Source: Gemmatimonas sp. | GTDB taxonomy: Bacteria; Gemmatimonadota; Gemmatimonadetes; Gemmatimonadales; Gemmatimonadaceae | Assembly (NCBI GenBank): GCA_031414535.1 | Contig: JANNVQ010000014.1 | Location: 256,001 to 320,000, forward strand | Direction of reading: 5' to 3' | DNA: 64,000 nucleotides | Shown: piece after piece, positions 45,880-64,000 of the stretch | Numbering within the stretch: position 1 is the first letter of the stretch | Layout: every line of letters starts with the position of its first letter | The notes under the pieces: generated by a model | Told to the model about the DNA's origin: nothing | What the model saw: only the letters and a program-made list of their open reading frames with translations | Database searches by the model: none | Translations under genes and position numbers: made by a program

Positions 45880-47114
45880 GAGCTTCGACACCTGTGACGC
45901 TGGCGCGCCGCGCGGATTTTCCGCTGCTGGCGGCTCAGCCTGAGCTTGTATACCTCGACTCGGCGGCGACTTCTCAGAAGCCGGCTGTCGTTCTTGATGC
46001 GATTCGCAAATACTACGAGACGGTGAATGCCAACCCGCATCGTGGGGCGTATGCGTTGTCTGCGGCGGCGACTGAGGCGTATCACAATGCTCGCTTGCGC
46101 ATTGCTCGGTTTATTGGCGTGGCGGATGCTGACACGGTGATCTTCGTGCGAGGGGCGACGGAGGGGTTTAACCTCGTCTGCTCATCGTGGGGCCGCGCGA
46201 ATGTTCGCGCGGGTGACAATATCGTCGTGACGCGGATGGAGCATCACGCCAACTTTGTGCCTTGGCAGCAGTTGTGTCGTGCTGTGGGCGCGGAGTTTCG
46301 CATTGTCGAGCTCGATGCTGCGTCTAACGTTGACCTAGCGATGATGCGCAGGCTGGTGGATGCGCGCACGAAGGTTGTTGGGTTTGGGCAGGTGTCGAAT
46401 GCGCTCGGGACTATCAATCCGGTTGCGGAGATGGTTGCGATTGCGCGTGCGCAGGCGCCTGGTGCGCTTGTGGTGTGCGATGGTGCCCAGGCGGTGCCGC
46501 ATCTGTCCGTATCTATAGATGCGCTCGGCGTGGACGCGTATGTGTTCAGCGGGCACAAGCTTGGCGGGCCGATGGGGTCAGGCGTTGTGGTGGTGCGCCG
46601 GCCGGTTCTGGAGAAGATGCCGCCGTATCATTTTGGCGGGGATATGATCGAGTGGGTGAATGATCAGGATTCCACTTGGAATGTGCTGCCGCATCGGTTT
46701 GAGGCTGGGACGCCTAACGTTGAAGCCGCTGTGGGCTTGGCGGCTGCGTGTGACTATCTGGAGTCACTTGGGATGAATGCGGTGCGTCAGCACGAGTTGT
46801 TGCTGACTTCGGCGGCTATGCGGATGCTTGGGGAGATCGAGGGAGTTACCCTGCACGGGACTCCGGCCGCTGAAGGTAGATCAGGCGTGGTTTCGTTCTC
46901 TGTTGCGGACGTCCATCCGCACGACGTTGCCACAACGCTCGATGCTGCTGGGGTCTGCGTGCGCGCTGGGCATCACTGTGCGCAGCCGTTGATGCGCGCG
47001 ATGGGTGTTGCAGCGACGACGCGCGCTAGCTTCTGGGTGTACTCGACACTTGAGGATGTGACGAAGCTCGCATCTGCAGTTCGGGCGACGAGCGAGCGAT
47101 TCGCCGGAGCCTGA
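45876..47114 (+). CDS. sufS: Cysteine desulfurase SufS
   Basis: YLDSAATSQKP, EHHAN, DGAQ, SGHK (PLP Lys), RAGHHCA. Confidence 0.95.
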   Translation: MRASTPVTLARRADFPLLAAQPELVYLDSAATSQKPAVVLDAIRKYYETVNANPHRGAYALSAAATEAYHNARLRIARFIGVADADTVIFVRGATEGFNLVCSSWGRANVRAGDNIVVTRMEHHANFVPWQQLCRAVGAEFRIVELDAASNVDLAMMRRLVDARTKVVGFGQVSNALGTINPVAEMVAIARAQAPGALVVCDGAQAVPHLSVSIDALGVDAYVFSGHKLGGPMGSGVVVVRRPVLEKMPPYHFGGDMIEWVNDQDSTWNVLPHRFEAGTPNVEAAVGLAAACDYLESLGMNAVRQHELLLTSAAMRMLGEIEGVTLHGTPAAEGRSGVVSFSVADVHPHDVATTLDAAGVCVRAGHHCAQPLMRAMGVAATTRASFWVYSTLEDVTKLASAVRATSERFAGA

Positions 47115-47116
47115 CC

Positions 47117-47159
47117 CGGGAAACGACGGGATCCGAGCCCGCGACCCCCTGAACCCCAT
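47117..47159 (-). other. Degenerate 3' half of tRNA-Pro (att remnant)
   Basis: Minus strand reads ATGGGGT-TCAGG-GGGTC-GCGGG-CTCGGAT-CCCGT-CGTTTCCCG: anticodon loop (GGG) through T arm to acceptor; no D arm. Confidence 0.7.
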
Positions 47160-47384
47160 TAACGGGTCAGCTCGTGGCACCCTGGCACAGTGTTGAGTTT
47201 CGCCCGCCCTCGAGATGCAATGCAAATCATTGCACCGACACCAGTTAGCTGGCGTTTTAAGCTGCTCCAACATCGGTGAAGCACAGTTCTCGGAATTCTT
47301 GGGAGACATCGGAAACAAGCGCATTTCCAGTCGGCTGGCACATTCCAGGCACAGTGCGAACGCGATCCGCGCCGGCATCATCGA

Positions 47385-48812
47385 TCAGCGCAGCTTCTTG
47401 GAGCGGCTGCAAACGACTAAACGCTTGGCGCCGCGAGTCATTGCGACGTAAAGGTGTTCCGGCCCCAGAGGATCCGCGTCAAGCACAATCGAGATGTCAG
47501 CTTCAAGCCCCTTCAGCAGCAAGGTGCTACCGACCGCTCGACCCGGGAGGGCACGCAAACCGAAGCGGGACTCCTCGCGGATCCGTCTCGCAACTTCCCC
47601 ATAGGATCGTAGTGGTGACTCAGCGCATGTGCGGGCCATCTGCAGGCAAGAGTTCAGCAAGACCGGGCGGAATACGTGCGAGCCAGACTGCGACTGGAGC
47701 GCCGCGAGAAGGAGCGCAATCCGTCCAGGCGCTGCGTCTGCAAGCAGGCTCAGGGCGGCGCTCTCCACCTCCGAGGTCGGCTTACGTGAGCGACCGTTGA
47801 CGATAGACTCAATGCGAGCGGCCAGGTCCGCCGGCCGTACCGCAGTCATTACGCTCGCCGCGAGCGAGGCTGTGAGCTCCAGTATCTCTGTCCCACTTTC
47901 CACCTCATCGAGGGACTCGGCGAACTCGATAAACTCACGAAGCTCGACCGTCTCGACTGCGACTGCCCCTCTGGTCTGGCGTGCAAAATCGTGCTGCAAT
48001 GCCTTGTTCTTGCTATCGACGAGGATAAGTGCGGTACCGCCGCCACCAGGCAAGCGCCGGTTCGCAGCACTCAACTGCACAGGAGTATCGTGTGAGGGAT
48101 CACCCGTGAGGCCAACCCATTGGACCGCATCGGGCGCAGCCGAAAGCTCGATGCCTTCTCCCGCACTCAGTGGGGATCGAATTCCCAAGAGCCACTCGCC
48201 AAGCTCTTGCGCACCGCTGTTCTTCCATCGCCACGGGACGTCCAGCTGAGCTACCATCGGAAAGTCTCTGAGCACAACATCTCGCCAGCTGGGAAGACGG
48301 TTGCCTCCAAATCCGAAAATCGCCTGAAGCGGATCGCCCAGCACAACCGTGGGTAGCGCTTCAGACAGTCCACGTACCAGTTGGTGCTGGAGCTGGTTGC
48401 AGTCCTGGTATTCATCGACCCAGGCCCTGACATAAGTCTTGCGAAGCAGCTCTTCGATCCCACCTTCAATAATCAGCCTCACCGCAGCGCGTCTTATATC
48501 AGGATAGTCATCCCTTGGACTCCGAAGCTCCAGGGCAGCCCGGCGCACACCGGACCTCTCCGGGAACATCGACACCATCCGAAGCGCCCAGCCATCAAGA
48601 GTGAACACCCTGAACGCCTTGGGGTCGACTTTGGACAGCGATAGGCGCCGGCGGAGAACTGCCACACCGGCGTTAGTGTGCGTGAGGATCAACACTGGTC
48701 GCCTATTGCGGATAGCGGCCATCGCATCGACGATCAACTGAGTCTTTCCACAGCCAGCCGGGGCCTCAACCGAGCCGCGGAGTGCCTCAATCAAGACGTC
48801 AGACTGCGGCAT
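47385..48812 (-). CDS. gajB: UvrD-like helicase, Gabija GajB-like
   Basis: APAGCGKT, LTHTNA, DEYQD, GDPLQAIF, KGLE, LYVAMTRG; compact 475 aa; overlaps the OLD nuclease gene. Confidence 0.8.
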   Translation of the reverse strand: MPQSDVLIEALRGSVEAPAGCGKTQLIVDAMAAIRNRRPVLILTHTNAGVAVLRRRLSLSKVDPKAFRVFTLDGWALRMVSMFPERSGVRRAALELRSPRDDYPDIRRAAVRLIIEGGIEELLRKTYVRAWVDEYQDCNQLQHQLVRGLSEALPTVVLGDPLQAIFGFGGNRLPSWRDVVLRDFPMVAQLDVPWRWKNSGAQELGEWLLGIRSPLSAGEGIELSAAPDAVQWVGLTGDPSHDTPVQLSAANRRLPGGGGTALILVDSKNKALQHDFARQTRGAVAVETVELREFIEFAESLDEVESGTEILELTASLAASVMTAVRPADLAARIESIVNGRSRKPTSEVESAALSLLADAAPGRIALLLAALQSQSGSHVFRPVLLNSCLQMARTCAESPLRSYGEVARRIREESRFGLRALPGRAVGSTLLLKGLEADISIVLDADPLGPEHLYVAMTRGAKRLVVCSRSKKLR

Positions 48813-50511
48813 CCCGCGCCCACGCCCGAAGCGCTTCGATGACTAAAGCGATGTTCAAGGCGGACCCGGTCAGTGCTGGACCTAGAATCTCACGGGCCGG
48901 AGTCTCCATTTGACTAATCGATTTGAACCAGCCGCTGCCAGCCTTCGCAGCTAGCCCGAGAACCTTGCGAGCGTCATCAGTGATTGATGCGCGGCAATCG
49001 GTGAGGCCAAGAACCCCGTTACTCTTGGACTTGATGTGCGAGTCGATAGCGGCCTCAGATTGTAACTCAACCGCGCACTCCAGCAACTGTCTGACTGCCT
49101 CCTCTGGGAGCGCAGAGAATAGCGCCTGCTCCGTCGAATGGCCTTCGCTCCACTTGAATAAATGTCCTCCTGCTTCCACGAAGGCATCCTCGCCCGGGGG
49201 CGCAAGCGCGACGTCTGAGTCGCGAAGGATTGCCACCTTGAATCCAAGAGCCTGCAGCGCTTGAGCCCGACCTCCCACTCGCGAATGGCCATTGCTGTCG
49301 ATGAAGACAACGCCCACCGAAGCGAGAGTGGGCCTCGCCTGGCTGTCCTCGAACTGATCAAGACCGCGGAGCAGGCCAACCTCTGTGGAGCCCTCACATA
49401 CCACAACGGCACGCGCCAATAGGGCCTCTGGGAAGGTGCGCACTGTTCCCTGAATCTCATCTGCAGTCCCGACAGGCACACAAAGGTGCGCCTCCTCCGT
49501 TGGCCTCCTTAGAATCCACAATGCGTCGCCTGAGAGTTCTCTAATCACGACGGGTGAATGCGTGGTGAGGAACACCTGAGCCGAGGGCTGTGCCGACTTC
49601 GCTCCGAGTGTGTCCAGCAGTCGCGCCACGCGATACGGCTCCAGCCCATGCTCGACCTCATCGGCAATGATCATGCACGTGCCGCCCCCCAAGGTCTGCT
49701 GCATGCCGGCCGTCAGGAGCCGAACAGAGCCCGTGCCGAGACATTGCAGCGGAATGCCTTTGCTGGTGTGAAGCGCAATCGTGCCCCTTCCGAGCGATAT
49801 GGAGTCAGCATCGAGCATCGCTTTCAGGCCGTCCCCGATTTTTAGGCCGAGAAGCACCCCCTTGGCGGCTATCGCATCGAGGGTGTCCTGTAGATCGGGC
49901 GCCGTCTTCTCACCGAATGCCTTCCGCGCTTCACGGGCTGCGGTAGCGAGCGCATTGGACGCATTCGGAACATCAGACGTCAGCCGGCTAAGCACGGAAC
50001 CCTGCCGCCAAGCGAACTGCGAGCTGCTGCTGACTCCGATTCGGATCGGTCCGAGCTTGGTTCGAATGCCCCAGGGAATTCCCCTTTGCAGTCCCAACTC
50101 TCGGGAACGATCGGAATAGAGCGTCCACGTTGGGTCTAGCGATTCGTCGACAACCAGCTGCAGCGTCACCACGGTCTCCAATCCGACCCCAGCCTCGTCT
50201 GCAACCTCCCCCGACTCAGCATCAAATCCTCTGAGGTATTGGCCGTAGGTGTCAATGTCGAGTAGCTCGTCCGGAAGTTCGCCAATAGTTGCAGCGATCC
50301 GGATCGGCTTGCTGTGGTCTAGCTCGAAGAAATCGGCGTCGGAGAAAGCGATCGCTCGCCGCGCTCCGAGGCACAGGTCTATCGCGTCAAGCACCGTGGA
50401 CTTCCCCACGTCGCCGGGGCCTAGCAGGCAGTTGAGGCCAGGCTTCGGGTTCCAGTCGAGGGATCTCATGCCGCGAAAGTTCTCGATCTCCAGCCGTCTG
50501 ATGCGTGTCAT
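48799..50511 (-). CDS. gajA: OLD-family ABC ATPase-TOPRIM nuclease, Gabija GajA-like
   Basis: IENFRG, GPGDVGKST, LGTG, DEVEHGLEP, TTHSP, TOPRIM VVCEGSTE and RDSD. Confidence 0.82.
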   Translation of the reverse strand: MTRIRRLEIENFRGMRSLDWNPKPGLNCLLGPGDVGKSTVLDAIDLCLGARRAIAFSDADFFELDHSKPIRIAATIGELPDELLDIDTYGQYLRGFDAESGEVADEAGVGLETVVTLQLVVDESLDPTWTLYSDRSRELGLQRGIPWGIRTKLGPIRIGVSSSSQFAWRQGSVLSRLTSDVPNASNALATAAREARKAFGEKTAPDLQDTLDAIAAKGVLLGLKIGDGLKAMLDADSISLGRGTIALHTSKGIPLQCLGTGSVRLLTAGMQQTLGGGTCMIIADEVEHGLEPYRVARLLDTLGAKSAQPSAQVFLTTHSPVVIRELSGDALWILRRPTEEAHLCVPVGTADEIQGTVRTFPEALLARAVVVCEGSTEVGLLRGLDQFEDSQARPTLASVGVVFIDSNGHSRVGGRAQALQALGFKVAILRDSDVALAPPGEDAFVEAGGHLFKWSEGHSTEQALFSALPEEAVRQLLECAVELQSEAAIDSHIKSKSNGVLGLTDCRASITDDARKVLGLAAKAGSGWFKSISQMETPAREILGPALTGSALNIALVIEALRAWARDAAV

Positions 50512-50652
50512 GTTCTCTCACGGAGGCGTTACTCTTGTCACGGCTCACGATCGAGCCTCGAATGCGATCGAGAGACGTTCCGACTTGGACCAGGCATCGT
50601 CAAGGTGCTCGCCTGGATGACTCCGGCCTAGGCCAGAGGGCGCAGCGCGACG

Positions 50653-51432
50653 CTAGAATCGAAAGTGCCGTCGTATTGGCGGGAGGAATCGTAGCGAAGC
50701 GGCTTGATTCATCGGCCTCTTTGGCCCGACGAGCAGGGGAGGCTCCTCGTAGTGCCCAACGAAGGCCCTGAAGTTGTCGATGAGCGATTCAAATCCGTTT
50801 CGCCCGGTCTCCGCGAACGTGCGCACAAACTGGGGCCTTGAGACGGGCTGCACATAGGCCCTGTCCGCGCTGCTATGGGGAAAGACCCACCACAGGTGCC
50901 CACCATCCCCGAAATCGAAGAACACGTGAGCGCTGCTACCGAGCCAGTCTCGGAAGAGGGCACCCGCGGGCCTGAGTATCTGTCGTTTGTTGAAGTTGGG
51001 GATGTAAGAGGTGCCGCGGGCCCATTCCTTCGCAAACCTCGCAAGATCACGTTTCCGCCGCGCTCCATCCACGACCCAGACTAGTCCCTCATAGAACTGC
51101 TCCCGTGCACGACGCTCGTCGGGGTCTATGTGGGAATGCTGGAACTCCAGAACCCATCCATCCGCCGTCTTCACGTCTGCAATGTGCAACTCGCCGCTCA
51201 GGGCTCGGTGGACGACCTCCTGCCAGTCCGGCGGGAAGTGATTCTTCCACGCCCGGTGCCACTCGGTCTCGTTCTCCGACCAGGGGTCGCAGGTTCGAGT
51301 GCCGGCGTGGGCCCAGTGCCACGTCTTGATCTCCCCGCACTTGGCGATGACAGGCTTGCCGCAGCCTGGACACTCGGCTACGAGTTTGGGCAGCGCCTCG
51401 AGCCGCTGCCCCCCATGCAATGCAAATCTCAT
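50653..51432 (-). CDS. CoiA-like protein (Zn ribbon + PD-(D/E)XK-type nuclease)
   Basis: CPGC..KCG..HWAH..CDPW..ETEWHRAWK, HIADV..VLEFQHS. Confidence 0.8.
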   Translation of the reverse strand: MRFALHGGQRLEALPKLVAECPGCGKPVIAKCGEIKTWHWAHAGTRTCDPWSENETEWHRAWKNHFPPDWQEVVHRALSGELHIADVKTADGWVLEFQHSHIDPDERRAREQFYEGLVWVVDGARRKRDLARFAKEWARGTSYIPNFNKRQILRPAGALFRDWLGSSAHVFFDFGDGGHLWWVFPHSSADRAYVQPVSRPQFVRTFAETGRNGFESLIDNFRAFVGHYEEPPLLVGPKRPMNQAASLRFLPPIRRHFRF

Positions 51433-51535
51433 CTGACCGCGGCCTCCCCACGGATGACGTACGACTTCAGCGGTTGTTCTGCATTCCGATTCTAGCGCCG
51501 GGAACCGACAGCGAGGGCCGCCTTCTGTGAACCGA

Positions 51536-51570
51536 GCCGCCAGATCCGAGCGGATCTGGCGGCCCTTTTT
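51536..51570 (+). terminator. Strong hairpin with T-tract, oriented for + strand transcription
   Basis: GCCGCCAGATCCG-AG-CGGATCTGGCGGC-CCTTTTT. Confidence 0.55.
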
Positions 51571-52034
51571 GCGTTTCCCTCTTCTGGAATTGGCTCATTC
51601 TGGGCGAAGTAGGCTTCCGACCGCACCGCTCGGCTATTCGAGCTGGCGGCCTCACGGAGCGTAGAGGCCAGTCGATTCGGCCAATCCCACCGCAATCCCA
51701 CTCGGAATCTTCTTCCAATGCCCCACGCATTAACTCGCCGCGAGGTGAGGGACTCGCGCCGGAGAGTGGGTATGCGAATTCCGGAATCGTGCCGTTTGCG
51801 GGACCAGCTACGTATCCCAGGGCTCTCCATCTCGACTCGAGTTCAGAAGCCCCCGTATCCGCTCACGAAGACGAGCTCCTGTCCTCAGACACTGGCAAGG
51901 CCCCTTACCCACCGCATCCCTCCGCAACAACGGAGTGCCCCGGCGACGAATAGCCGCCAAAGAAGGAGGCTTAATGCGAGCGGGGCGTGCTACGCACTCC
52001 CCGCCCCATCACTGCTCAAACGTCGGCAACCCCG

Positions 52035-54971
52035 TTAGCCACCCGACGTTGTGACATCGTCCGAAAGTCCGACGTCTCGGAGACCGCTCCGTAGCTCATC
52101 AGCCGTGTGCTGGTCCGTAGCAGGCTCGAATGGCATCCGGAACTCAACGCGCACCGTGAGTCCCGGCTTCGACGCGATGCGGGTGAGCACCTTCATGTAG
52201 AACGTGGTCCACTTCTGTATCGGGACTTGACCGGTCCAGCCGAGGGCTCGAGATGTGAGTTGCAGTTCGCTGTGGCGCTTGACGTTGGGAGACTCGTTCA
52301 CTGCCACCGACACTTCCGCTTGCGCGGTGATGTCACCCGCAGCCACACGCACGGCGAACCTCCCGGTCTCCGCTCCAACCACCAGCTGTCCGTCGGGCGA
52401 GATTTCGCCCGTGGTTGTCGACCATGAGAGTGCAGGCTTCGACAGCTCGTGTCCGTACTGATCGAACGCGCCGATGGTAAACTTGGCCTGCTCACCGGGC
52501 TGCAGCACTACGCTGTCGGGGCGCAACGAAAGCAGTGCCAATCGCGGTGGCTCAAGGAGGCGCTGCGCATCAGCAGACTTCAGGATGAAACAGTCTTCTG
52601 CGATTTCGACCTCGTGTTCCGACAGGTCCTCGTTGAATCGAACGAGCACGAGTCGGCCTGACGCATCGCGATGCGCATAGCCGAGCAGTCCCTGCGACAC
52701 GCCAGCCGCTATGCTTCGTTTGACGACCTCGCCGCGAATGAGGCGCGGCAGCAACGGCGACGAGAAGAATGCATCCCTGAGCGCTTTGGTGGACCATTCC
52801 GTGAACGCGGGTGGCCAGTACTTCAGCAACCGGTTTGCACCAACGGCGTCCGTCACTTCGTCGTCCTTAATCATTCGATTGAGGATCAGCTCCGAGTGAC
52901 TTCCCGCCATACTCGACGTGATCTGACCGAGATCTATCTCGCGGATGATGTTGTCTTTGCCGAGTAGATACAGATAGCGGTAGGAGCGCCACACGGCCTC
53001 GCGCAGGTCCTTCTTGGCCCGCTTGAGACTCTCGGTTAGTTGTCGACGCTGAATCTCATCCAACCGACCCTTGCTCTCATCGTCGTCGTCAACGGCTTCC
53101 CATGCGAGCAGACTGCGCGTCGCCTCGACCGCCGTGTTGCCCGGCGCCGGCGCCACAAAGATCAGGGCACTCTTGAACGAGCGCGCTGAAGCTCCGGATT
53201 CACGGACAATCGTCTCCATGAGCTGGCGAGTCATTGGTTCCCCGGCTGGCGTCTCAGGGCCCATGATAACCAGTGTCAGCTCCGGCCGGTCGGGAACGTC
53301 ATTACTCTTCGCCGGCGAGAAGCGGCGTTCGAACGTCTGCTGCCCTTCCTTAAATAGCGCCTCCGTTTCATCTCGCAATCTTTTCGCAATCACGTCGGCC
53401 TTCACCTCGGCTCGGCGCGTGACAAGGATCTGGTTCAGGTTGGGACTGAGGCTGAACCGATAGCGGTTCTTGTCGCCACTCAGGTAGAAAGACGACGCGA
53501 TGAGCTGTTCGAGCACATGGTCGACATCGGCCAGGTTGGTATCGGGCTCACCGACCGCCGTCTTGATCTCCGCGACGCTGGCTTCCGCCCGTGACTGGGA
53601 TTGACCACCATTGCTTTCGAAGAAAATCGCTGTCGCAGTCTTCAGATGAAGACGAGACTTCCTGATCGACTCCGTGGCTTCCTTGTCGAGTCGCGCCGCG
53701 TGCGAGTCGTTTCGGCCAGTGATGTCCGAGATGACGGGTACTTCGAGGCGATCAGAGCCGAGCTGCTCGAACACCGCTGCTCGAAACGTCGGATCGTCGA
53801 GCGGAGCGGACCCCAAGGTTATTAGCGGCTCCTTCGCTGCCTGTCGATGCTCCTCCTGATATGCTCGCGCGACCCAAAGGGCGAGCAATCGCAGCACTCC
53901 CCGGGTTCGTTGAAAGCGCGGCAATCCTTGCCACTTTCGTTCGAACACCGACAGCACGGACGGGTGGAACGGGTACGCTGACAGAAACAGGTCGTAAGCG
54001 GACGCGGCGTCGATGCCTGCTAGCTCGCCATTGTGCGCCACGGCCCAGCCGGCGTACTCCGAGATGGTCTTCTTGGCGTCCACAGAACTCCCGTGCCACT
54101 CAAACAAACGACGGCGGATGATCTCGGCGAACTCGGTCTCGGCGCTCATCATGATCGCTTTTCCGACGCGGTCGAGCAGTTTCTTCAGGGATTCGTGGTC
54201 ACGCTGATCCTCAGCGTTCATCTCTAGTTCCGATGCGGGGATCGAAACGCAGAGCACCATGTTGTCGCGTGCTCGGGCTTCCTCGGAGAGATTCTGGAGA
54301 AAGTTGTAGAGCTGGTCTCCGAGCTTGAGTTTCCGCGCACGGCTCACGTAGTTTAGCAACTCATCCATCAGGATCAGCACAGGCCCGGCGGGGAGCATCT
54401 TTCGAATCACGTCTCCCGCAGGCGCGATCCCATCCGCGTCATGCTTTGCGACGGTCTCGAACGCCTTTTCGCCGCCGAGCTGCCAGGCGATCTCCCCCCA
54501 AGGAGTGCGACGCTGCGGCTCGCCCTTGCCGCCGCGACCGTCGATCACGTCGAACTCCGTTCCTACGAATACCGCAACCGCCGCCGTGGGAACCTGTGTC
54601 ACACCAGCCCGAGAGAGGATGCCATCTACGCCCTTCCACTCGGCTGCCGCCTTGCCGCCGTTAGCGAGGTGATACAGCGCTGTGAGAGAGTGTGTCTTTC
54701 CACCGCCAAACTGCGTGGCCATGTTGAAGACGGCCGACGTCTCGACCTTTATACCGGAAAGCCGGCGCACGACCTGGCTCGATAAGTCGAGCAGGCTCTT
54801 CGTCAGGTAGGTACGGTCGAAAAAGCGCCCCGGTTCCAGATAGTCGGGATGGGCCCGGTGATCGCGGATGTGGTCGAGATGTACCGCGAACTCGCTGGCA
54901 TCGAGCGGGCGGTTGTCGCGCAAATCTTCGCGCGGAGTCACCACCTGGTACCACGGTTTCAGTTTGGCCAT
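52035..54971 (-). CDS. DUF499 family AAA+ ATPase with C-terminal Ig-like domain
   Basis: KPWYQVVTPREDL..SEFAVHL, QFGGGKTHSL (Walker A), ILMDEL (Walker B), EIIRRRLF, YPFHP, FQRTRGVLRLL. Confidence 0.88.
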   Translation of the reverse strand: MAKLKPWYQVVTPREDLRDNRPLDASEFAVHLDHIRDHRAHPDYLEPGRFFDRTYLTKSLLDLSSQVVRRLSGIKVETSAVFNMATQFGGGKTHSLTALYHLANGGKAAAEWKGVDGILSRAGVTQVPTAAVAVFVGTEFDVIDGRGGKGEPQRRTPWGEIAWQLGGEKAFETVAKHDADGIAPAGDVIRKMLPAGPVLILMDELLNYVSRARKLKLGDQLYNFLQNLSEEARARDNMVLCVSIPASELEMNAEDQRDHESLKKLLDRVGKAIMMSAETEFAEIIRRRLFEWHGSSVDAKKTISEYAGWAVAHNGELAGIDAASAYDLFLSAYPFHPSVLSVFERKWQGLPRFQRTRGVLRLLALWVARAYQEEHRQAAKEPLITLGSAPLDDPTFRAAVFEQLGSDRLEVPVISDITGRNDSHAARLDKEATESIRKSRLHLKTATAIFFESNGGQSQSRAEASVAEIKTAVGEPDTNLADVDHVLEQLIASSFYLSGDKNRYRFSLSPNLNQILVTRRAEVKADVIAKRLRDETEALFKEGQQTFERRFSPAKSNDVPDRPELTLVIMGPETPAGEPMTRQLMETIVRESGASARSFKSALIFVAPAPGNTAVEATRSLLAWEAVDDDDESKGRLDEIQRRQLTESLKRAKKDLREAVWRSYRYLYLLGKDNIIREIDLGQITSSMAGSHSELILNRMIKDDEVTDAVGANRLLKYWPPAFTEWSTKALRDAFFSSPLLPRLIRGEVVKRSIAAGVSQGLLGYAHRDASGRLVLVRFNEDLSEHEVEIAEDCFILKSADAQRLLEPPRLALLSLRPDSVVLQPGEQAKFTIGAFDQYGHELSKPALSWSTTTGEISPDGQLVVGAETGRFAVRVAAGDITAQAEVSVAVNESPNVKRHSELQLTSRALGWTGQVPIQKWTTFYMKVLTRIASKPGLTVRVEFRMPFEPATDQHTADELRSGLRDVGLSDDVTTSGG

Positions 54972-54995
54972 TTGTTATCCGTTCGAAGTCGTAGC

Positions 54996-57926
54996 TCAGA
55001 GATTGAAACTCTTACGGCGGGCGAGCAAACCGTCCACCCATCGCTTCTCATCAGTTCCCGGTGGATACAAGGCCGAAAGCGACTGCGCGACTCGCCAGAA
55101 TCGAGTATCGGTGCCGGCCCCGTCCTCCGTAAGGAATCGCTTGAGTGCCTCTCCGCGACCCGCCGAGAACAGCAGCATGCACTGATGGACCTTATCCAAG
55201 GTCGTACCAGAAGAAGCATTGTGGCCCACTTCAGAACTGGTAGACGGTGCAGCCTTCGACATCTCAGCCTCGGAGAACAGCGTCCCCTGTGGTCCATTCG
55301 TCGACCGGCCTACCACACGGCGCTGCACTTCCGTCGAATCGGTGAACAGCCAACGGGCGCGCTCGGCGACCGACAAGAGCCGGGCGGTCTCGCCCTTGAC
55401 CTCGACAAGTGTCCCGAGCTCCTCCAAGTGAGCCCCGAGTCCTTGAGCAATCTTTCTCGCGGCGTCGAATTCCAGAACGTAGCCGCGAACCGGACTCGAC
55501 TTTGCGTCGCTTCCGTCGTCCTCATCCGCTGCGTCGTTCTCTGACTCCTCGGTGGCCGTACTCGGCCGACCGGCTCCCACCGTCCAAAGCCACATGGCCG
55601 TCAAGCGCGCGTCCGGTTCGAGACCTGCAGAGTCGGCACCATCGAAGATGGTGGAGAGTGCCTCGTTCGCGACCGCTCCCCATACGTGTTCCAAGTATTC
55701 GGAAAGCGCCACAACGTCGCCATTGGACTTCTCAACGCGGCTGTATCGGCTGAAGACCTCCAGTGCCGGCCCGATACATGCGAAGATTGCATCTGCACCC
55801 ACAATGCCTTCCTTGGCGAGCCGCGGCATCCATTCGTGAATGCGTCCGGGTAACGCTGAAATCACGTCGCGCCAGTCACCGACCGAGTCAGTTTCCACTT
55901 GCCCGTCTGGGCGCTCTCGTGGGCGGCAAACAAGGAAGATGGACGACTGGAGTGACGCCGAAGCCTGAGCGCGCGTTCTATTCTGCATCTCTGTGTCGAC
56001 CGGCCACGACGCAGTCACGACCCATCCGCCTTCGATCACGGCGCGGAGCATTGCCTCCCACGCTGTGGTACTGCTGTCGGCAAACACGATACAAGCGATC
56101 CCGCTTGGCTTTGTGATCTCGCGCGCTTTCGCCAGCGCTTGTGTCATTCCCTGCGAGAAGAACTCTTCATCTTTTGGTTCACCCGAAGGACCTGTCGCTG
56201 AGTTGGTGACAATCAACTCGCGTTGCTTTGCGACGAGTTCATCTCGAAAGTACGCGGCGTCGCGTCCGCGAAGCCCACGCTTTAGCCAGACGTAGAACAC
56301 ATCCGACAGGTCAGCGTACGGAATCGCCGCAAAATACGGAGGATCCGTGCAAAAGACGTCGACTGAATCGGCAGGCAACGGGACAGTTTCGGCGCTCGCA
56401 CATTCGACGCGACCGGCGTGGTCGAGTATGAGATTCGACTGCAAGACCTTCGCAACCCACTGCACAGCCGCCGGCCAACTCGCCATGACGTCATGGGTCG
56501 GATTGGATTCAGCAAAGTCCCACAGTATCTGAAGGGCTTGCTTGGAAAAGAGCCCTTCGATCTTACTTCCAGTGTTGTTCCAGCGCGAAAGCGACGTGTT
56601 CTGCATTACAAGTCGGTCAAGCGCCAAGTGCAGAAGAGTCTCGACCGCGTCGTCCAATGCCTTGTCGGCTGCGCTCTTCTGGTCCAGAGATGAGTGAATT
56701 GCGTCCTGGAAGGCGACGATTGCCACCGCCTGACGAGCCGTGTAGAGGTCCAAGAAGCGGCGCATGCCAAACCGCGTCACGCCACTGATGCCCCTTGTAT
56801 TCGCATAGGGACGAGTCGGATTGATAGGCTCCGTGGGAAACACACCCGGTCGGCGCTTCTGCATATCCGCGTAGGCAGCGGTAGCGGCAGCGACAGCGGC
56901 CACATCATTCCTGTTTGGAGCGCGAAACGAACGGGCTCCGTTGTGCTCGACCAAGACCGCATATAGGCGCGCCGTGTTCGCTCCTCCGAACACGGCCGTC
57001 ATCTGCTCCTTTACACGCTTCGCCGACGTCGTGTAGCCGCAGCGCACGCAGGTAGCCTTTCCACCACTCACGGTGGCTGTAGTTCGCTTTTCAATGCCGC
57101 TGACTAGCTCGGTGAGGACCTTGCGCCCAGAGGCGGATACCAGCACGTGCGCGACGGGCGACTTTCGCGAGAGCTGGGTAGCGCGCAGCAACGGCAGTTC
57201 CACACCGCATCCTGGGCCCTCGCACTGGATAGTACGCGCCCAGAGGTAGGCGATGGGAACCGCCTTGTTGGCGTCACGTGGATAGAGCGGCGCGAGCGTC
57301 CGTTGCGCCTCCTCAAGCACCGCGTTCGCACGTTCGCGAAGGCGATCGATCAAACGTTGACCGAAAGCGGGCAGGTACTCCAGAATCACCTTGTTAAGGA
57401 GAACAGGCACCGGGTTAAGGTCGGACGCAAACGCGTCCGCGCCTATCCGCACTGCTTCCAGAGGTATTGCTCCGCCACCAGCAAAAGGATCAACGACGAG
57501 CGGACGAGTCCCCCTCTCGCCCCCGAGTGCTTCGTGGGCCGCGTTCACAAGAGCACGGGCAGTCTCCAAGAAAATTCGTTCGTCAGCGTGATCCCAGTTT
57601 GCGAACTCAGCGATAAAGTCGAGCAGCCCGAGTCGCAGCGCCATCGGATTCCGCCAGTCGCGTTCCTCTCCGCCTCGCTCATCGCGGAACTTCTTGAGCC
57701 ATGTTCCGCAAGAATTGACAAAGGACGCTGGACATTCCGGGTCTGCAGGGTCCGGCAAGAGGGCGCCAAGCAACGCGGCTCGCGCGGACGCAAGCGGACG
57801 CCGGGCCCACCAGATGTGGAGCGTCGAGATATGTCCGTGACGTAGAGTCTTCTCTCGGCGCGATTGATTCGACACCTCTGCAATCGGCAGGTCAACTTCG
57901 ATGAGGCGCTTAGGGTAGTTGTGCAT
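54996..57926 (-). CDS. DUF1156-containing adenine-specific DNA methyltransferase
   Basis: KRLIEVDLPI, LHIWWARRPL, DPFAGGG (motif I), TDPPY (motif IV), Zn-ribbon Cys pairs; start at ATG 57926. Confidence 0.9.
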   Translation of the reverse strand: MHNYPKRLIEVDLPIAEVSNQSRREKTLRHGHISTLHIWWARRPLASARAALLGALLPDPADPECPASFVNSCGTWLKKFRDERGGEERDWRNPMALRLGLLDFIAEFANWDHADERIFLETARALVNAAHEALGGERGTRPLVVDPFAGGGAIPLEAVRIGADAFASDLNPVPVLLNKVILEYLPAFGQRLIDRLRERANAVLEEAQRTLAPLYPRDANKAVPIAYLWARTIQCEGPGCGVELPLLRATQLSRKSPVAHVLVSASGRKVLTELVSGIEKRTTATVSGGKATCVRCGYTTSAKRVKEQMTAVFGGANTARLYAVLVEHNGARSFRAPNRNDVAAVAAATAAYADMQKRRPGVFPTEPINPTRPYANTRGISGVTRFGMRRFLDLYTARQAVAIVAFQDAIHSSLDQKSAADKALDDAVETLLHLALDRLVMQNTSLSRWNNTGSKIEGLFSKQALQILWDFAESNPTHDVMASWPAAVQWVAKVLQSNLILDHAGRVECASAETVPLPADSVDVFCTDPPYFAAIPYADLSDVFYVWLKRGLRGRDAAYFRDELVAKQRELIVTNSATGPSGEPKDEEFFSQGMTQALAKAREITKPSGIACIVFADSSTTAWEAMLRAVIEGGWVVTASWPVDTEMQNRTRAQASASLQSSIFLVCRPRERPDGQVETDSVGDWRDVISALPGRIHEWMPRLAKEGIVGADAIFACIGPALEVFSRYSRVEKSNGDVVALSEYLEHVWGAVANEALSTIFDGADSAGLEPDARLTAMWLWTVGAGRPSTATEESENDAADEDDGSDAKSSPVRGYVLEFDAARKIAQGLGAHLEELGTLVEVKGETARLLSVAERARWLFTDSTEVQRRVVGRSTNGPQGTLFSEAEMSKAAPSTSSEVGHNASSGTTLDKVHQCMLLFSAGRGEALKRFLTEDGAGTDTRFWRVAQSLSALYPPGTDEKRWVDGLLARRKSFNL

Positions 57927-57936
57927 TCGCTCTCGA

Positions 57937-60900
57937 CTAAGCCGGGACTGCGGCTGCGGTGAGTTGCGACATCGCGAGCCGATAGTGTTCGACGACGACA
58001 ACCGCCTGCCAGCCAAGGGTCGCGGGGTTGTTGATCAGACGAAGGTCAGGCTTCGAACTGCAGTTGAACACGACATAGAGCCAATAGTCGCCGCCGAGCC
58101 GCTCAGCCGTCCGGTGTTCGTTCGAGGTTAGCGCGACATCGCCGACAGCGGAGCGTCCCTTCACCTCGATGAAACGCACTTCAGTGAAAGTCTTGACGTC
58201 TTCCGGGTGCGGCTTTCGCGAAATCAGATCGAAGCCACGATTCTCGCTCTCGACGCTCTCGACCACCCAACCGCGAGCGCGTTCGTACGCCATCGCCGTG
58301 TCGACCGCGATCCGTTCGACCTCCTCATCGCGAACCATGGGCGCGTACTGTGGCTCCGCCCGCTCCGGGTGAGGCAACACCCACGCGCGCCCAAGATGCG
58401 TAAGATCGCTCACAGTACAGTGCCGCTCCATGTCCAAGTCCTTGCGGCGCGCATCGAGGCGGTTGTTGAGCGTATCCAGGTGCGTCTCAGCCTGAGCGAT
58501 AATGCCATCAAGGCCCGGGGTGGTGCGACCGTCCTCCTGACGACTCAGAAACTCCGCGAGCTGGAGTTGCTGTCGGTCGATGAGCGCCTGAAGACTGATT
58601 TCGACGTGTTGCGCGATTCGGTCAACCTCCTGAGAGCGCTGGGTAGCGGTCTCCGCAAGCCAAGGCGCGAGGCTCTGCGAGTACAAGTGCTCTTCGGAGA
58701 CTTGGCGTGCCGGCAGCGGCAGGTCCGGCGCAAGCGTCCCCTTAGGCGCTGGGTTTACGTCGTGAAAGACTGTCGGCTGCCTGATCGTTACCGTGCCGTT
58801 CGGAGCTGTCTCAACCACGAACAGTCTCCGGTGCAAGGTGTTGCCGCGCCCGTCCTTGATGGAAGCCGCAAAGACGTCCCACAGCGCCGACTCCTTTCGG
58901 TGCAAATCAAAGAACACCGTACCGCGGTTGAGATCGTCTGCCGTGCGCTCGGCAATTTCCGTACGAACTGCCTCGAAGAGCGGATGGCCCGGAGTGACCC
59001 ATTCGAGCGTTGGGTCTGCTTCCAGCAACTGCTTATCGAAGACGACCTTGCCGAACTCTCTTCCCAGTCGCCCGTATCGCGGCTCTTGCCGATCACCGAT
59101 GGCGACGAGCAGGCGCGGAATCTTGCCGATACGGTAGATGTGCGTACTCGGCCCTGTGGGATTTGGCGAAAGCCCTGCTTCGGCAGCTGATGCGGTGAAG
59201 AAATCTTCGATCACCTCGGGGACGAGGCGACGTTCCTTCGCTTCAACCGCGCGATTGATAAGCGACGAGAGATTCAGATTACGCCGTGCAAGACCTTCAA
59301 GGGCGCTTTCGGTAATTGCTCTGAAACGCTCGGGGTCGACGTCGTGCACAATCCGATCCTGCACCTGATTCACGTCGAGTTGACGGAGGTACATCTCGCG
59401 GAACAGTCGCTCGATAGTTGATGCCGGAAGCACTTCTCCAACGACGTCAAAGACCTGGTCGGTTCCGAGCTCGTTCCGGATCTCTTTGAGACGATCAAGC
59501 AACTTCTGCAGCACGCGTCCTTCGCGCGTGTTCTGCGCAACGAAATTGAAGACGAGGCAATCGTGCTCCTGTCCGTAACGATGGATGCGTCCGACTCGCT
59601 GTTCGAGGCGCATCGGATTCCAAGGGATGTCGTAGTTCACCATGAACCAACAGAACTGCAGATTGATTCCTTCCCCCGCCGCTTCCGTGGCGACGAGCAC
59701 CTGACAGCTTTCTCGGAACTCCCGCTCCGCGTAGATACGGGAACCGGGCGTGTCGCGGTCTCCGATCTTCATTCCGCCGTGGATCTGTGTGACGGATAGT
59801 CCCATGTCGCGGAGACGCCCTACAAGGAAGTCGAGCGAATCTTTGTGCTCCGTGAAAATGAGCACTTTCATGGTTGGGTCTGAGAACACCCCCTCTTCGG
59901 ACAGGAGCGTCTTGAGTCGCGTGAGCTTGCTTTCAACCTCGCGTTTCTCGAGGGCGCACGCTTGGATGATGAGCTTTTCGAGATTGGCGATCTCTTCGCG
60001 GAGCGACGTAGGGTCTACTGACGCAACCACGTCCTCGAGTTTCGCGAGAATCTCCTGCTTTTCTTCGTCTTCGAGTTCGTCAAAGTCATCAGGCACTTGC
60101 CGATCGATTTGCGCTTTGCGGTACGCTTCCGGATCCTCAAGTATCAGACTCCGCTTGTCTTTCATGCGCTCAAGCGTTCGACGCACCGCGTAGACTGTCG
60201 ACGCCATGCGGCGCTGCAGCATCGCCATGGTGAATCCGACGGCTCGGCCGCGTGTTGCATCCTCGCTCGATGCACGAATGCTCTGGTCCTCGACGTAGTG
60301 CGTCAACGAGTCGTAGAAATCGAGCTCGTCCCCGTCGAGGTCGAACGCGGCGGTACGCACCTCGCGTTTTGTGAATAGCTTGCGCACTTCCCCCGTCTCC
60401 GGATCGGGGAAAGTGACTAGCGCTTCCTTGGTACGCCTCAGGTAGAACGGTGCAACGTTCTTACGCATGGCCTCCTTCAGACTCGCCACGTCGCCGTAGA
60501 CGTCCTTGTCAAGCAACGCGAGGAAGAGACAGAAGTTCTCCGGGTCTCCTTTATGAGGCGTTGCTGTCATGAGGAGATAGTGATCGGTCATCGTCGACAG
60601 CGACTCGCCCAGACGGTATGCAAGCGTCTTCCGGTCGTCGGCGTACGCCGCCATCTTGTGCGCCTCATCGACGATCACCAGGTCCCACCGGGATCTGAGC
60701 AAGCTTTCGCGCGCATCTTCTATCCGCGACACCCAGGATACCGACGTGATCGCCTGATCTACGTCTTGCCACGGATTCTGGCCGTAATTGGCGCGAAGCA
60801 CATCGCTCCTGATGACGCTAAAATCCTCCCGAAACTTGTCCTTCATTTCGCGCTGCCACTGGAACGTCAGGTTGGCCGGTGTGACGATCAGTACCCGCTT

Positions 60901-61344
60901 CACCAAGCCACGCGCCTTGAGTTCCTTGAGCAGCAAACCGGCCATCACCGTCTTGCCGGCGCCTGGATCGTCGGCCAGAAGGAAGCGGATTCGCGGGAGT
61001 GGTAGGAAGTAGTCGTACACTGCCTCCAGTTGGTGAGGCAGCGGATCTACCCTTGCGATGGAAAGCGAGAAATAGGGGTCGTATTCGTAGGCGAGGCCAA
61101 GTCGAACGGCCTCGACTCCGAGGCGAAACTTCCGCGCATCACCGTCGAACGGATCGCGGTCGGCCGAGACCGTGAGTTGCGCCAGCTGAGCCATTGTGAG
61201 GATCGGATCGCGCGTCAGACCCGTTTCCAGTCCGCGTCCAATCACTTTCACGGCCTGCCCCATCGGCTGAACCGCAAGCACTTCGATCGGCTCAGGAAGC
61301 GTGGGTCCGCGGACGATCATCCCGGGCCGGAGGGGTTCTCTCAT
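57937..61344 (-). CDS. SNF2-family helicase with C-terminal DUF3883 (PD-(D/E)XK-like) domain
   Basis: LPHQ, LADDPGAGKT, DEAH, TATPH, EGINLQ, EQRVGRIHR; C-terminal GFDLISR..FIEVKGR; start at ATG 61344. Confidence 0.92.
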   Translation of the reverse strand: MREPLRPGMIVRGPTLPEPIEVLAVQPMGQAVKVIGRGLETGLTRDPILTMAQLAQLTVSADRDPFDGDARKFRLGVEAVRLGLAYEYDPYFSLSIARVDPLPHQLEAVYDYFLPLPRIRFLLADDPGAGKTVMAGLLLKELKARGLVKRVLIVTPANLTFQWQREMKDKFREDFSVIRSDVLRANYGQNPWQDVDQAITSVSWVSRIEDARESLLRSRWDLVIVDEAHKMAAYADDRKTLAYRLGESLSTMTDHYLLMTATPHKGDPENFCLFLALLDKDVYGDVASLKEAMRKNVAPFYLRRTKEALVTFPDPETGEVRKLFTKREVRTAAFDLDGDELDFYDSLTHYVEDQSIRASSEDATRGRAVGFTMAMLQRRMASTVYAVRRTLERMKDKRSLILEDPEAYRKAQIDRQVPDDFDELEDEEKQEILAKLEDVVASVDPTSLREEIANLEKLIIQACALEKREVESKLTRLKTLLSEEGVFSDPTMKVLIFTEHKDSLDFLVGRLRDMGLSVTQIHGGMKIGDRDTPGSRIYAEREFRESCQVLVATEAAGEGINLQFCWFMVNYDIPWNPMRLEQRVGRIHRYGQEHDCLVFNFVAQNTREGRVLQKLLDRLKEIRNELGTDQVFDVVGEVLPASTIERLFREMYLRQLDVNQVQDRIVHDVDPERFRAITESALEGLARRNLNLSSLINRAVEAKERRLVPEVIEDFFTASAAEAGLSPNPTGPSTHIYRIGKIPRLLVAIGDRQEPRYGRLGREFGKVVFDKQLLEADPTLEWVTPGHPLFEAVRTEIAERTADDLNRGTVFFDLHRKESALWDVFAASIKDGRGNTLHRRLFVVETAPNGTVTIRQPTVFHDVNPAPKGTLAPDLPLPARQVSEEHLYSQSLAPWLAETATQRSQEVDRIAQHVEISLQALIDRQQLQLAEFLSRQEDGRTTPGLDGIIAQAETHLDTLNNRLDARRKDLDMERHCTVSDLTHLGRAWVLPHPERAEPQYAPMVRDEEVERIAVDTAMAYERARGWVVESVESENRGFDLISRKPHPEDVKTFTEVRFIEVKGRSAVGDVALTSNEHRTAERLGGDYWLYVVFNCSSKPDLRLINNPATLGWQAVVVVEHYRLAMSQLTAAAVPA

Positions 61345-61773
61345 TCGCTGCGGGTTTCCTGATGTGGCCCGGCGCGGCGGAAGAATGCCGGGCACGGGCG
61401 CATGGATTGAGCAAAGCGTCGTGTTATCGGAAGGAAAACTACCCGCCGGGTCTGGGGCTGACGAGTAGTCGTCTGCGGTGATCGCGGCGATGCACGATCC
61501 GCACTGCCCTCCCGCCGCTCATCGCAGCCGCTTGACCGCAGCATCGAACGTGGAACTGATGTGGTATCGGACACGAAGGTACGTTCGCCCTCCGACAATC
61601 GAGCCGGTAAGTCGTCCAATCTTCATTCCGAGCCAGCTGCTGAGCCGGATTCGCGATCAAGCTGGCATCGGCTCGTCTCTCTGGCACACTACTGGCACAC
61701 AAGACAACAATGCGACGCGGTCGCAAGCCACGCGACTGCATTGCAAATTGTTTAACAACAATCACTTACAGCA

Positions 61774-61812
61774 TCAGGACGGCGGGATTCGAACCCGCGA
61801 CCCTCTGAGCCC
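61774..61812 (-). other. 3' half of tRNA-Pro (att remnant)
   Basis: Minus strand reads GGGC-TCAGA-GGGTC-GCGGG-TTCGAAT-CCCGC-CGTCCTG-A: perfect T arm, G72/A73 typical of Pro; no 5' half, no CCA. Confidence 0.8.
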
Positions 61813-62126
61813 TATGAAGGTTCCCGAGAATCCGCGAGAAATCCGACGCATCCACAAACTCAATTCGCGCAAGCACTTACGTTGGGCATGACAGCTGTGC
61901 GTGTAGCTGCGCCACCGGCCGCAACCTGGAGTTCGCACACGAATGGCACTCTAAATCACAGATTGTACATATATCGCAAACGGCGTGGCACCCGATGGGA
62001 CGAGGGCTAACCCACGTGCAGCAGGTTAATCTTAGCGTCCCCGCGAGAAATCCTCGACAATCAGCGACCCCGCAGAGCCTTCGATCCGCTCAAAGCAAGC
62101 ACCGTCTTATTGATTGGACCCGAAGT

Positions 62127-63545
62127 TCAATGAAAACGCTCTCCAGCGGGGAGATCGTCCACTTCGATGGTCGACAGCTGCTCATCAGACGGCGAGGCTA
62201 GCGCGGCAAGCCGGTTGGACTGACGCGTCAGGCTTCGCTCAAAGAAGTTCCGCACAAGGCGGCCATTACCGAAATCAGCGCCACGAGTTTCGTGCAGCGC
62301 CGTGAGTAGACTGGTCGCCAGCTCACGTGCGGGAGGTGAGATGTTAATCCGAGCAGAGTCGACCATTCGGGCAAGAATCTCAGTCAGCTCACCTGGCCCG
62401 TAGTCTTCAAAATGCATGAACTTGTTGAAACGCGACTTCAGGCCCGGATTCGACTGCAGAAATTCTGCCATTCGATCCTGATAACCCGCAACGATTACCA
62501 CCAAATCGTCTCGATGGTCCTCCATGAGCTTCAAGAGGGTCTCGATGGCTTCGCGTCCAAAATCGGTGCCCCCTCCGCCGGCACTAAGGCTGTAAGCTTC
62601 GTCAATAAACAGAACGCCTCCACGAGCGCTCTCAACAACCTCGCGCACCTTTAATGCGGTTTGCCCAACATAACCGCCAACAAGCCCACTACGATCAGTC
62701 TCGACGAGGTGTCCGCGCCGCAGGAGTCCGAGAGCACGGTATATCTCGGCCAGCAAACGTGCCACTGTGGTCTTTCCCGTCCCGGGATTTCCGGAGAACA
62801 CTAGGTGCAAGGACACGGGCAACGAGGGAAGTCCACGCTCTTTACGCAAACTGTTGACCCTAATGTGGTTTACGAGCCCCTCGACGTCCTCTTTGATTCT
62901 TGCGAGGCCCACCAGCGCGTTAAGACGCGACATCAGCTCCCCAAGGGTCTGCTGAGGCGGAGCAGCGCCCGCCATCGCCTGCGCTGGCGCCAGTTCATCC
63001 CTGGCTTCGGAGCCACTAGCCGCATAAGCTTCGTCGTCCTCGGAATCGTCGACTGGGAAGGCGGGGACTGACTTCTCAATCAGGTGAAGGCGCATCACGT
63101 GAACGAAGTGCGTGATAGCATCGACCTCGTCAAGGTTCGAGTCGTCAACAGCTGCGAACTTCAATCCAATCTGTTCGAGCACCGTTACGACGCGTGCCGC
63201 CACCGCCGAACCGTTCGCAGCATCGAAGTCGGCTATGTCTTCGACAAGCGATGGCACTCGTGCGAGAAAATCGGGATCTCCCTCGCGCGCGGCGAGAACT
63301 CCTGCGACCACTTCGTGGTATGAGTTGTTCCTTCCGGCAATCTCATTTATCAGCTTGGCTTCAGCGACGGTGATCTCACCATCTGAGGCAAGAACATGGA
63401 AGAGATAATCCGTCATCAAACCGATCGCTGCGTCCTGCGCGTTCGGTGCAGTTCCAAAGCCCTTCCGGTCCACTAGCTCACTCACCTCGACTAGCACAGC
63501 ACCTGCTTGCTTGAACGTGTCGGCCAGTTCGCGGATATCAGACAT
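62127..63545 (-). CDS. AAA+ ATPase of the SpoVK/CbbX type with TerB-like N-terminal domain
   Basis: LVGLARIK, FSGNPGTGKTTVAR, LVGGYVGQT, LFIDEAYSL, NPGLKSRF, FGNGR; N-terminal VLASDGEITVAE; start at ATG 63545 (an upstream start at 63626 is possible). Confidence 0.85.
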   Translation of the reverse strand: MSDIRELADTFKQAGAVLVEVSELVDRKGFGTAPNAQDAAIGLMTDYLFHVLASDGEITVAEAKLINEIAGRNNSYHEVVAGVLAAREGDPDFLARVPSLVEDIADFDAANGSAVAARVVTVLEQIGLKFAAVDDSNLDEVDAITHFVHVMRLHLIEKSVPAFPVDDSEDDEAYAASGSEARDELAPAQAMAGAAPPQQTLGELMSRLNALVGLARIKEDVEGLVNHIRVNSLRKERGLPSLPVSLHLVFSGNPGTGKTTVARLLAEIYRALGLLRRGHLVETDRSGLVGGYVGQTALKVREVVESARGGVLFIDEAYSLSAGGGGTDFGREAIETLLKLMEDHRDDLVVIVAGYQDRMAEFLQSNPGLKSRFNKFMHFEDYGPGELTEILARMVDSARINISPPARELATSLLTALHETRGADFGNGRLVRNFFERSLTRQSNRLAALASPSDEQLSTIEVDDLPAGERFH

Positions 63546-64000
63546 GTGCGTCTCGCTAAGGTTTTTCTTGACCGGCGACCAGTTCACGCCGGCGGGGAGA
63601 ATCAGAGGACGGCGATAAGTATGCACTCCCTCAAACTTCTCACGCTATCACGGTGCCTGCTTACTAACAGTCGGCCTAGGTCACTCTCCCTCCAAACGAC
63701 GAATCTTCCTGAATCTCGGCCTCGGTCATTTCACAGTCGTAGCCTCAGGCCGCCATTCGAAGAAAGCGAAACCCGATTTCGCAGACGGACCTTCGCAACA
63801 GCGCGTTCCCTTTCTGCTGGAACCGCTTCTTTGATCACACTTGAATGAAGTCGACGCCCGGCCCAGTACCTTTGGCAAAAGGGTCAGCTTCTCTTTGGCA
63901 GAAGGCTTGCCCGCGCTGCGCGGCGGATTGTCGACATGCGACGCACAGAGGCTCGCCAAGCCGCTGGGCCTCCGGTTCCTCAGCCGTCCTCAGCGGCTCC

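Follow-up and report, generated by a model that had tools for sequence, protein, structure and literature searches.

The name Hma was given to an operon of three genes, of which 1,638 instances were reported (Payne et al. 2021, PMC8565338), and the BREX-related (BR) systems centred on DUF499 have been equated with it by Rakesh and Krishnan (2026, PMC12839542). In the latter classification Type-1 BR systems have only three core genes and form the commonest subtype (2,446 taxa); helicase and nuclease are fused in 79% of them, and the ATPase bears an N-terminal HEPN domain in 1,370 of the 2,446 taxa. Type-2 is marked by DUF3780 and a PLD nuclease, and Type-3 by PglZ. Hma is therefore a system that is already named, occurs in thousands of taxa and has been partly tested. 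Here we describe a locus of this kind in a 64,000-nucleotide stretch of Gemmatimonas sp. DNA, referred to below as the window (C14:256001-320000, C14 being contig JANNVQ010000014.1 of the 3.7-Mb genome GCA_031414535.1). Judged by its sequence, the locus is an intact copy of the known Hma system, that is, of a Type-1 DUF499-centred BR system.

Identity of the three-gene operon

ORF and translation checks found three intact open reading frames (ORFs), all on the minus strand, in the order hmaA-hmaB-hmaC, separated by 10 and 24 bp, with no cargo genes between them (Table 1). An earlier note on this DNA had described three minus-strand genes with these gaps and had named their motifs, and all of this was verified in the sequence. 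The genome has one copy of each of the three. The longest hmaA frame opens at a GTG (61395) and the N-termini of relatives agree with the ATG (61344); motif and residue positions of HmaA are nevertheless counted from the GTG. They are GAGKT 145, DEAH 243, QRVGR 599, GFDL 1054 and EVK 1077 in HmaA, FAGGG 148 and DPPY 528 in HmaB, and GGGKT 89 and LMDE 201 in HmaC. Pfam assigned SNF2-rel_dom, Helicase_C and NOV_C (=DUF3883, an equivalence found in PMC11232893 as well) to HmaA, DUF1156 to HmaB (E 1.4e-21) and DUF499 to HmaC (E 1.9e-26). No real Rfam match to a structured RNA was found across 47000-64000.

The top PADLOC models were HmaA PDLC00659 (E 1.1e-186, residues 22-1110), HmaB PDLC00661 (E 1.7e-113) and HmaC PDLC00662 (E 9e-121), scoring 621, 378 and 403 bits where the PLD_Helicase, DUF1156_MTase and DUF499 models scored 109, 140 and 78. 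The alternative DUF499 model gave E 1.2e-22 for HmaC, whose match to its own model begins at residue 3. NCBIfam models of the four-gene type stayed far under their cut-offs (171 of 1100, 184 of 1000 and 124 of 1200 bits), and the phospholipD_antiphage model, at 171 of 1100 bits, covers just the helicase part of HmaA. The family identity, the intact motifs and the gene order of the locus are established.

The genome gave no match to PglZ (PF08665) in a search whose control was positive in 2 of 14 cases. It gave none to DUF3780 either, in a search whose control matched nowhere, so that this search alone cannot show absence; inside the operon, the gaps leave no space for a DUF3780 gene. Pfam reported no PLD/HKD domain in HmaA. 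The earlier note was right that DUF3780, PglZ and a PLD nuclease are not to be found at the locus, but wrong to see in this a reduced form, since Type-1 systems lack all three by definition and the absences are therefore not a loss. A new minimal variant of the DUF3780 system was accordingly ruled out, the PADLOC and NCBIfam scores and the Type-1 definition fitting the locus, and the supposed novelty fell away with it: a named three-gene system matches exactly. Membership of BREX was ruled out by the lack of PglZ in the genome and the nuclease fusion of the helicase, and that of DISARM by a DrmD score under cut-off (368 of 610 bits); no other Brx or Drm genes were seen among the neighbouring genes scanned.

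For comparison with relatives, 185,579 species genomes were scanned for HmaC, 136 stretches were confirmed and 79 loci were kept, which are a sample of close relatives and not the whole family; in 25 of the 79, each of the three genes reaches full length by size limits. Across these 25, the catalytic residues, those of HmaA included, are kept in 23-25. The four NOV_C residues listed in Table 1 are kept in 24, and their spacing is within one residue of that of D1084/E1104/K1106/E1121, which are required in the tested Halomonas HmaA (PMC11232893). The C-terminal PD-(D/E)XK nuclease of HmaA is thus predicted to be active. The HmaA N-terminus, where a Tudor domain is a trait of Type-1 helicases, forms a conserved domain of ~66 aa, for which neither Pfam nor PDB profiles gave a Tudor match. 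In HmaC the Walker A and B motifs and the arginines are conserved among relatives, and K92-T93-H94 has a spacing equal to that of MtsA K80/H82. No sequence match to HmaB or HmaC was found among solved structures.

Table 1. Features of the Hma operon and its neighbours (window coordinates)
Feature	Position	Strand	Description	Evidence or note
hmaA	57937..61344	-	SNF2/SWI2 helicase-like ATPase with C-terminal PD-(D/E)XK (NOV_C/DUF3883) nuclease	1135 aa from ATG
NOV_C nuclease domain of HmaA	58036..58320	-	D1056, E1077, K1079, E1093	PF13020 E 1.5e-20
hmaB	54996..57926	-	DUF1156 N6-adenine methyltransferase (FAGGG ... DPPY)	976 aa
Variable central region of HmaB	56427..57179	-	~residues 250-500, putative target-recognition domain	Identity drop; position as in MtsC
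hmaC	52035..54971	-	DUF499 ORC/Cdc6-type AAA+ ATPase without N-terminal HEPN	978 aa
Ig-like domain of HmaC	52296..52553	-	Single bacterial Ig-like (Big_2-type) domain, residues ~807-892	AlphaFold, Foldseek, VIA-align, profiles
CoiA-like gene	50653-51432	-	Zinc-ribbon protein, 259 aa, nuclease-like in appearance, located between Hma and Gabija	No PADLOC match
gajA (Gabija)	48799-50511	-	Separate intact system downstream of Hma	PADLOC GajA E 5.6e-207
gajB (Gabija)	47385-48812	-	As above	PADLOC GajB E 5.5e-161
SpoVK/CbbX-type AAA ATPase	62127-63626	-	N-terminal ~200 aa without family match	

Variation of HmaB, HmaC and gene content among relatives

In HmaB, motifs I and IV flank the central region, which is also its place in MtsC, the methylase of MANTIS, and the DPPY motif is kept in 25 of 25 relatives. 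In 325 pairs of 26 loci (the 25 plus the window), which are not independent of one another, mean pairwise identity was 0.77 for the helicase core, 0.67 for the nuclease, 0.67 for the HmaC ATPase and 0.66 for the catalytic parts of HmaB, and fell to 0.49 for the HmaC terminal domain and 0.35 for the HmaB central region. Identity in the helicase rises and falls with that in the ATPase (Spearman 0.51), while the HmaB central region shows no such tie to the helicase (0.06). In one pair of loci (L038/L077) the helicases are 0.98 and the ATPases 0.99 identical, the HmaB central regions 0.33 and the whole HmaB proteins 50%; in another (L002/L003) the figures for helicase, ATPase and HmaB central region are 97, 96 and 42%. 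Evidently, the recognition region of HmaB varies independently of HmaA and HmaC.

Two HmaB genes share one HmaA and HmaC in 5 of the 48 loci with a full HmaB. Their central regions are 31-37% alike, and by pattern search both motifs are present in both copies in four of the five pairs. In these loci (L015, L032, L033, L036 and L065) the copy adjacent to hmaC is conserved (central region 72-97%) and the other varies (29-50%). Because the recognition region diverges while helicase and ATPase stay near-identical, and because such double-HmaB loci occur, HmaB probably serves as an exchangeable specificity subunit for an unchanging HmaA and HmaC. MANTIS offers a parallel: its MtsD is 99% conserved, and exchanging the target-recognition domain switches both methylation and restriction (bioRxiv preprint 10.64898/2026.09.23.753747). 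Phase variation of hmaB was considered and rejected, 52035-61500 being free of homopolymer runs of >=7 bases and of short tandem repeats.

HmaC carries a single immunoglobulin (Ig)-like domain ahead of its terminal domain. A single-sequence AlphaFold model of the HmaC tail was unusable (pLDDT 38); the version built with a 30-row alignment was used, in which the Ig domain reached pLDDT ~96. Its best Foldseek match was LigA of Leptospira (E 3e-6), its best VIA-align match a Big_2 domain (Z 11.5, root-mean-square deviation 2.2, 82 residues aligned), and profile searches matched it to Lig proteins. Among 30 aligned members of the Ig domain, Pfam assigned 10 to Big_1 and 6 to Big_2, the window copy matching neither, and ESM Atlas leads to Big_2 were weak (0.75-0.76). 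The HmaC terminal domain, where an RRM or ferredoxin-like fold is a trait of Type-1 ATPases, is conserved, with two helices modelled; the fold searches were dominated by the Ig domain.

A profile built from BLAST-positive copies detected the Ig domain in 29 of the 58 complete relatives of HmaC; in those Ig-less relatives that are shown, a Pro/Gly-rich linker occupies its position. A quick tree built from the ATPase core requires five changes in this trait, at least three of them on well-supported branches. Rakesh and Krishnan give tandem FnIII-like domains for Type-2 and mention BR ATPases that occasionally have one FnIII-like repeat (PMC12839542). A literature search for DUF499 combined with Big_2 gave no paper, the supplement of PMC12839542, which may list such a domain, lying outside that search. 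The Ig domain is the sole twist on an otherwise ordinary Hma operon, shared by half of the closest relatives, and it is likely an optional binding module or a spacer before the terminal domain.

Gene content also varies. Six of the 25 full loci are uninterrupted like the window operon and 19 have inserts. A conserved gene of ~197 aa occurs in 26 of the 79 loci (e.g. L012:9398-9985 and L016:9400-9981), usually directly upstream of hmaC, which it precedes in 24 of the 64 related loci with both hmaB and hmaC. Its product has a D...ELEN motif and the look of a restriction endonuclease, belongs to no Pfam or PADLOC family, and resembles Mrr and NmeDI-type clusters only weakly in structure; it is a candidate auxiliary nuclease or MtsB-like helper. 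That the Ig domain replaces this gene was ruled out, the gene being present in 10 of 29 loci with the domain and in 10 of 29 without it.

Proposed mechanism and alternative explanations

In MANTIS, a DUF499 ATPase loads the methylase, which is inactive without it; a 6-bp asymmetric site is hemimethylated, inverted pairs of the site are restricted best, and the recognition domain of the methylase sets the specificity of methylation and restriction alike (10.64898/2026.09.23.753747). By analogy this appears to be the best mechanistic model for the window locus, and we consider it probable that the operon is an ATP-driven, MANTIS-like, methylase-directed restriction-modification system. HmaC would load HmaB at a short, asymmetric site, where HmaB would methylate a single adenine of host DNA and so leave self hemimethylated; HmaA, directed by HmaB bound at unmethylated sites, would nick or cut the DNA of invaders. 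For Type-1 systems, and for the window copy, we infer these steps from MANTIS. The earlier note had proposed a methylation-based, restriction-like and BREX-related defence, which is the published hypothesis and in our view still the best reading, with a better than even chance of being correct. Its remark that the architecture is poorly characterised applies to the full three-gene Type-1 mechanism, of which no mechanistic study was found in the literature searched; it no longer applies to HmaA, which has been tested (PMC11232893), or to the Type-2 mechanism, worked out in MANTIS.

Several findings weigh against this proposal. In the only Type-1 test found, Halomonas hmaA by itself protected E. 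coli against T4, and not against T5, T7 or EEP (Liu et al. 2024, PMC11232893). T4 passaged on an HmaB-overexpressing host kept its infectivity, the constructs described being without HmaC, and a Walker A mutant defended better, not worse (PMC11232893); together the last two results argue against reading the system as simple restriction-modification. Some 15-19% of hmaA genes have no hmaB or hmaC nearby (PMC11232893). MANTIS, moreover, requires the co-activator MtsB (DUF3780), which the window locus lacks, and its cleavage is still unreconstituted in vitro (10.64898/2026.09.23.753747). The non-independence of the locus pairs compared above counts in the same direction.

The main rival makes HmaA a self-sufficient sensor and effector that nicks supercoiled or replicating phage DNA whatever its methylation and brings about dormancy, HmaB and HmaC being regulators or a separate layer. 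T4 protection by hmaA alone and the indifference of T4 to passage through the HmaB host speak for it, as does the NOV_C tail of Halomonas HmaA, which nicks supercoiled pUC19 and not linear lambda DNA (PMC11232893). Stand-alone nicking nevertheless seems to us rather unlikely: it leaves unexplained both the exchange of HmaB recognition regions between loci whose HmaA is 97-98% identical and the double-HmaB loci, the published test was heterologous with one of four phages blocked, and the inactivity of the MANTIS methylase without its DUF499 ATPase could account for the negative passage result. Less probable again is that both modes coexist, HmaABC performing site-directed restriction and the C-terminal domains of HmaC (Ig and terminal) sensing a phage protein or nucleic acid as a backup trigger. 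The modular tail of HmaC, with the Ig domain in half of the relatives and at least three gains or losses on the tree, agrees with such a role, as do the greater variability of the terminal domain than of the ATPase and the sensing function proposed for such domains in PMC12839542; the Pro/Gly-rich linker of Ig-less relatives, however, fits a spacer equally well. In its joint form, in which the Ig domain is a phage-protein sensor or adaptor that gives this Hma branch protein-triggered HmaA activation besides methylation-based restriction, and the methylase is loaded and activated without a DUF3780-like co-activator, the idea is likewise improbable.

It is very improbable that the locus, though intact in sequence, is silent or non-functional in its host, for example for want of an accessory gene. 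Recent acquisition would suit this: hmaC was found in none of 36 genomes of the same genus and in partial form in one of 24 further genomes from the order, many of these genomes being incomplete. So would the ~197-aa gene, which precedes hmaC in part of the related loci and was not found in the window genome. Against it, all three frames are open with their catalytic residues intact, the same uninterrupted three-gene form occurs in relatives, and the operon has no slippery run of >=7 bases.

The window operon is a compact, cargo-free test case of whether the MANTIS model holds without MtsB. MANTIS methylation needs a fourth protein, whereas Type-1 has none and the one Type-1 study found saw no methylation effect. 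The operon is also suited to probing the role of the optional Ig domain in HmaC.

Genomic setting and comparison with described systems

The nearest HmaC relatives are spread over many phyla, which fits horizontal spread. In three of five near-complete congeners sufS is directly followed by the gene that lies here at C14 ~341,090, presumably a gamma-glutamyltransferase; in the remaining two, the neighbour of sufS is a different gene or is unmatched. The adjacency of sufS and the right-border gene in congeners indicates that ~38 kb were inserted here. This island of defence and toxin-antitoxin genes contains Gabija, the CoiA-like gene, Hma, the SpoVK/CbbX-like AAA ATPase, an OLD-like ATPase, a VapC-like PIN toxin, Fic, two HipA-like kinases, a WYL regulator, an NYN protein and a DUF4143 ATPase. 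Neither Gabija nor the CoiA-like gene is a fixed partner of Hma, as neither gave a BLASTP match at 1e-10 in the 79 loci, many of them short-flanked. Only matches of chance size were seen when att-like repeats were sought between the island ends, and Pfam found no integrase among 21 island ORFs scanned, C14:338000-341000 being outside the scan.

Some smaller features were noted in and around the island. Just upstream of hmaA lies a 23-nt tRNA T-arm remnant (61781-61803, minus strand), identical at 22 of 23 positions to tRNA-Met and tRNA-His genes elsewhere, which is possibly an old attachment-site scar. A 74-bp piece at C14:336756-336829, 85% identical to the gene bordering the right end of the island, is possibly the remnant of an earlier insertion. 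In a PafB/PafC-type pair at C14 ~330.8-331.9 kb (L080:12797-13871) the first WYL-like gene is seemingly split over two frames, which would reflect a frameshift or an assembly error. Between hmaC and the CoiA-like gene, 51536-51563 is a GC-rich hairpin with 12 perfectly matched bp and a plus-strand T-run. An ARAGORN call of tRNA-Ser at 43810-43893 (minus strand), inside a sufD-like frame of the opposite strand, is probably false.

Set beside described systems, the locus shares a homologous helicase with BREX Type-3 and DISARM class I (BrxHII E 1e-88, DrmD E 4e-133). With MANTIS/Gao_RL, a Type-2 BR system, it has in common the DUF499 AAA+ ATPase, an FAGGG...DPPY methyltransferase with a central recognition domain and a superfamily 2 (SF2) helicase-nuclease; MANTIS differs in its four genes, its requirement for MtsB (DUF3780) and its N-terminal PLD nuclease, neither of the latter two being present in the window operon. 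Type-1 BR systems agree in the tripartite core, the C-terminal PD-(D/E)XK domain on the helicase and the DUF1156 methyltransferase with an inserted recognition domain, and the window ATPase belongs to their HEPN-less form; the beta-sandwich inserts described in the main text of PMC12839542 are the tandem FnIII-like domains of Type-2, whereas this Type-1 ATPase has a single Big_2-like domain. From Hma as published (PMC8565338, PMC11232893) the locus departs by that one Big_2-type Ig domain in HmaC and by being free of the cargo insertions found in ~66% of published hma loci. It is like Hma in having the same three genes in the same order, at sizes comparable to the 3552, 2811 and 2877 bp of the Halomonas genes (PMC11232893), and the best PADLOC models; and its HmaA, compared with the Halomonas protein by description and not by direct alignment, has the same SNF2, Helicase_C and NOV_C domains and the same spacing of nuclease residues.

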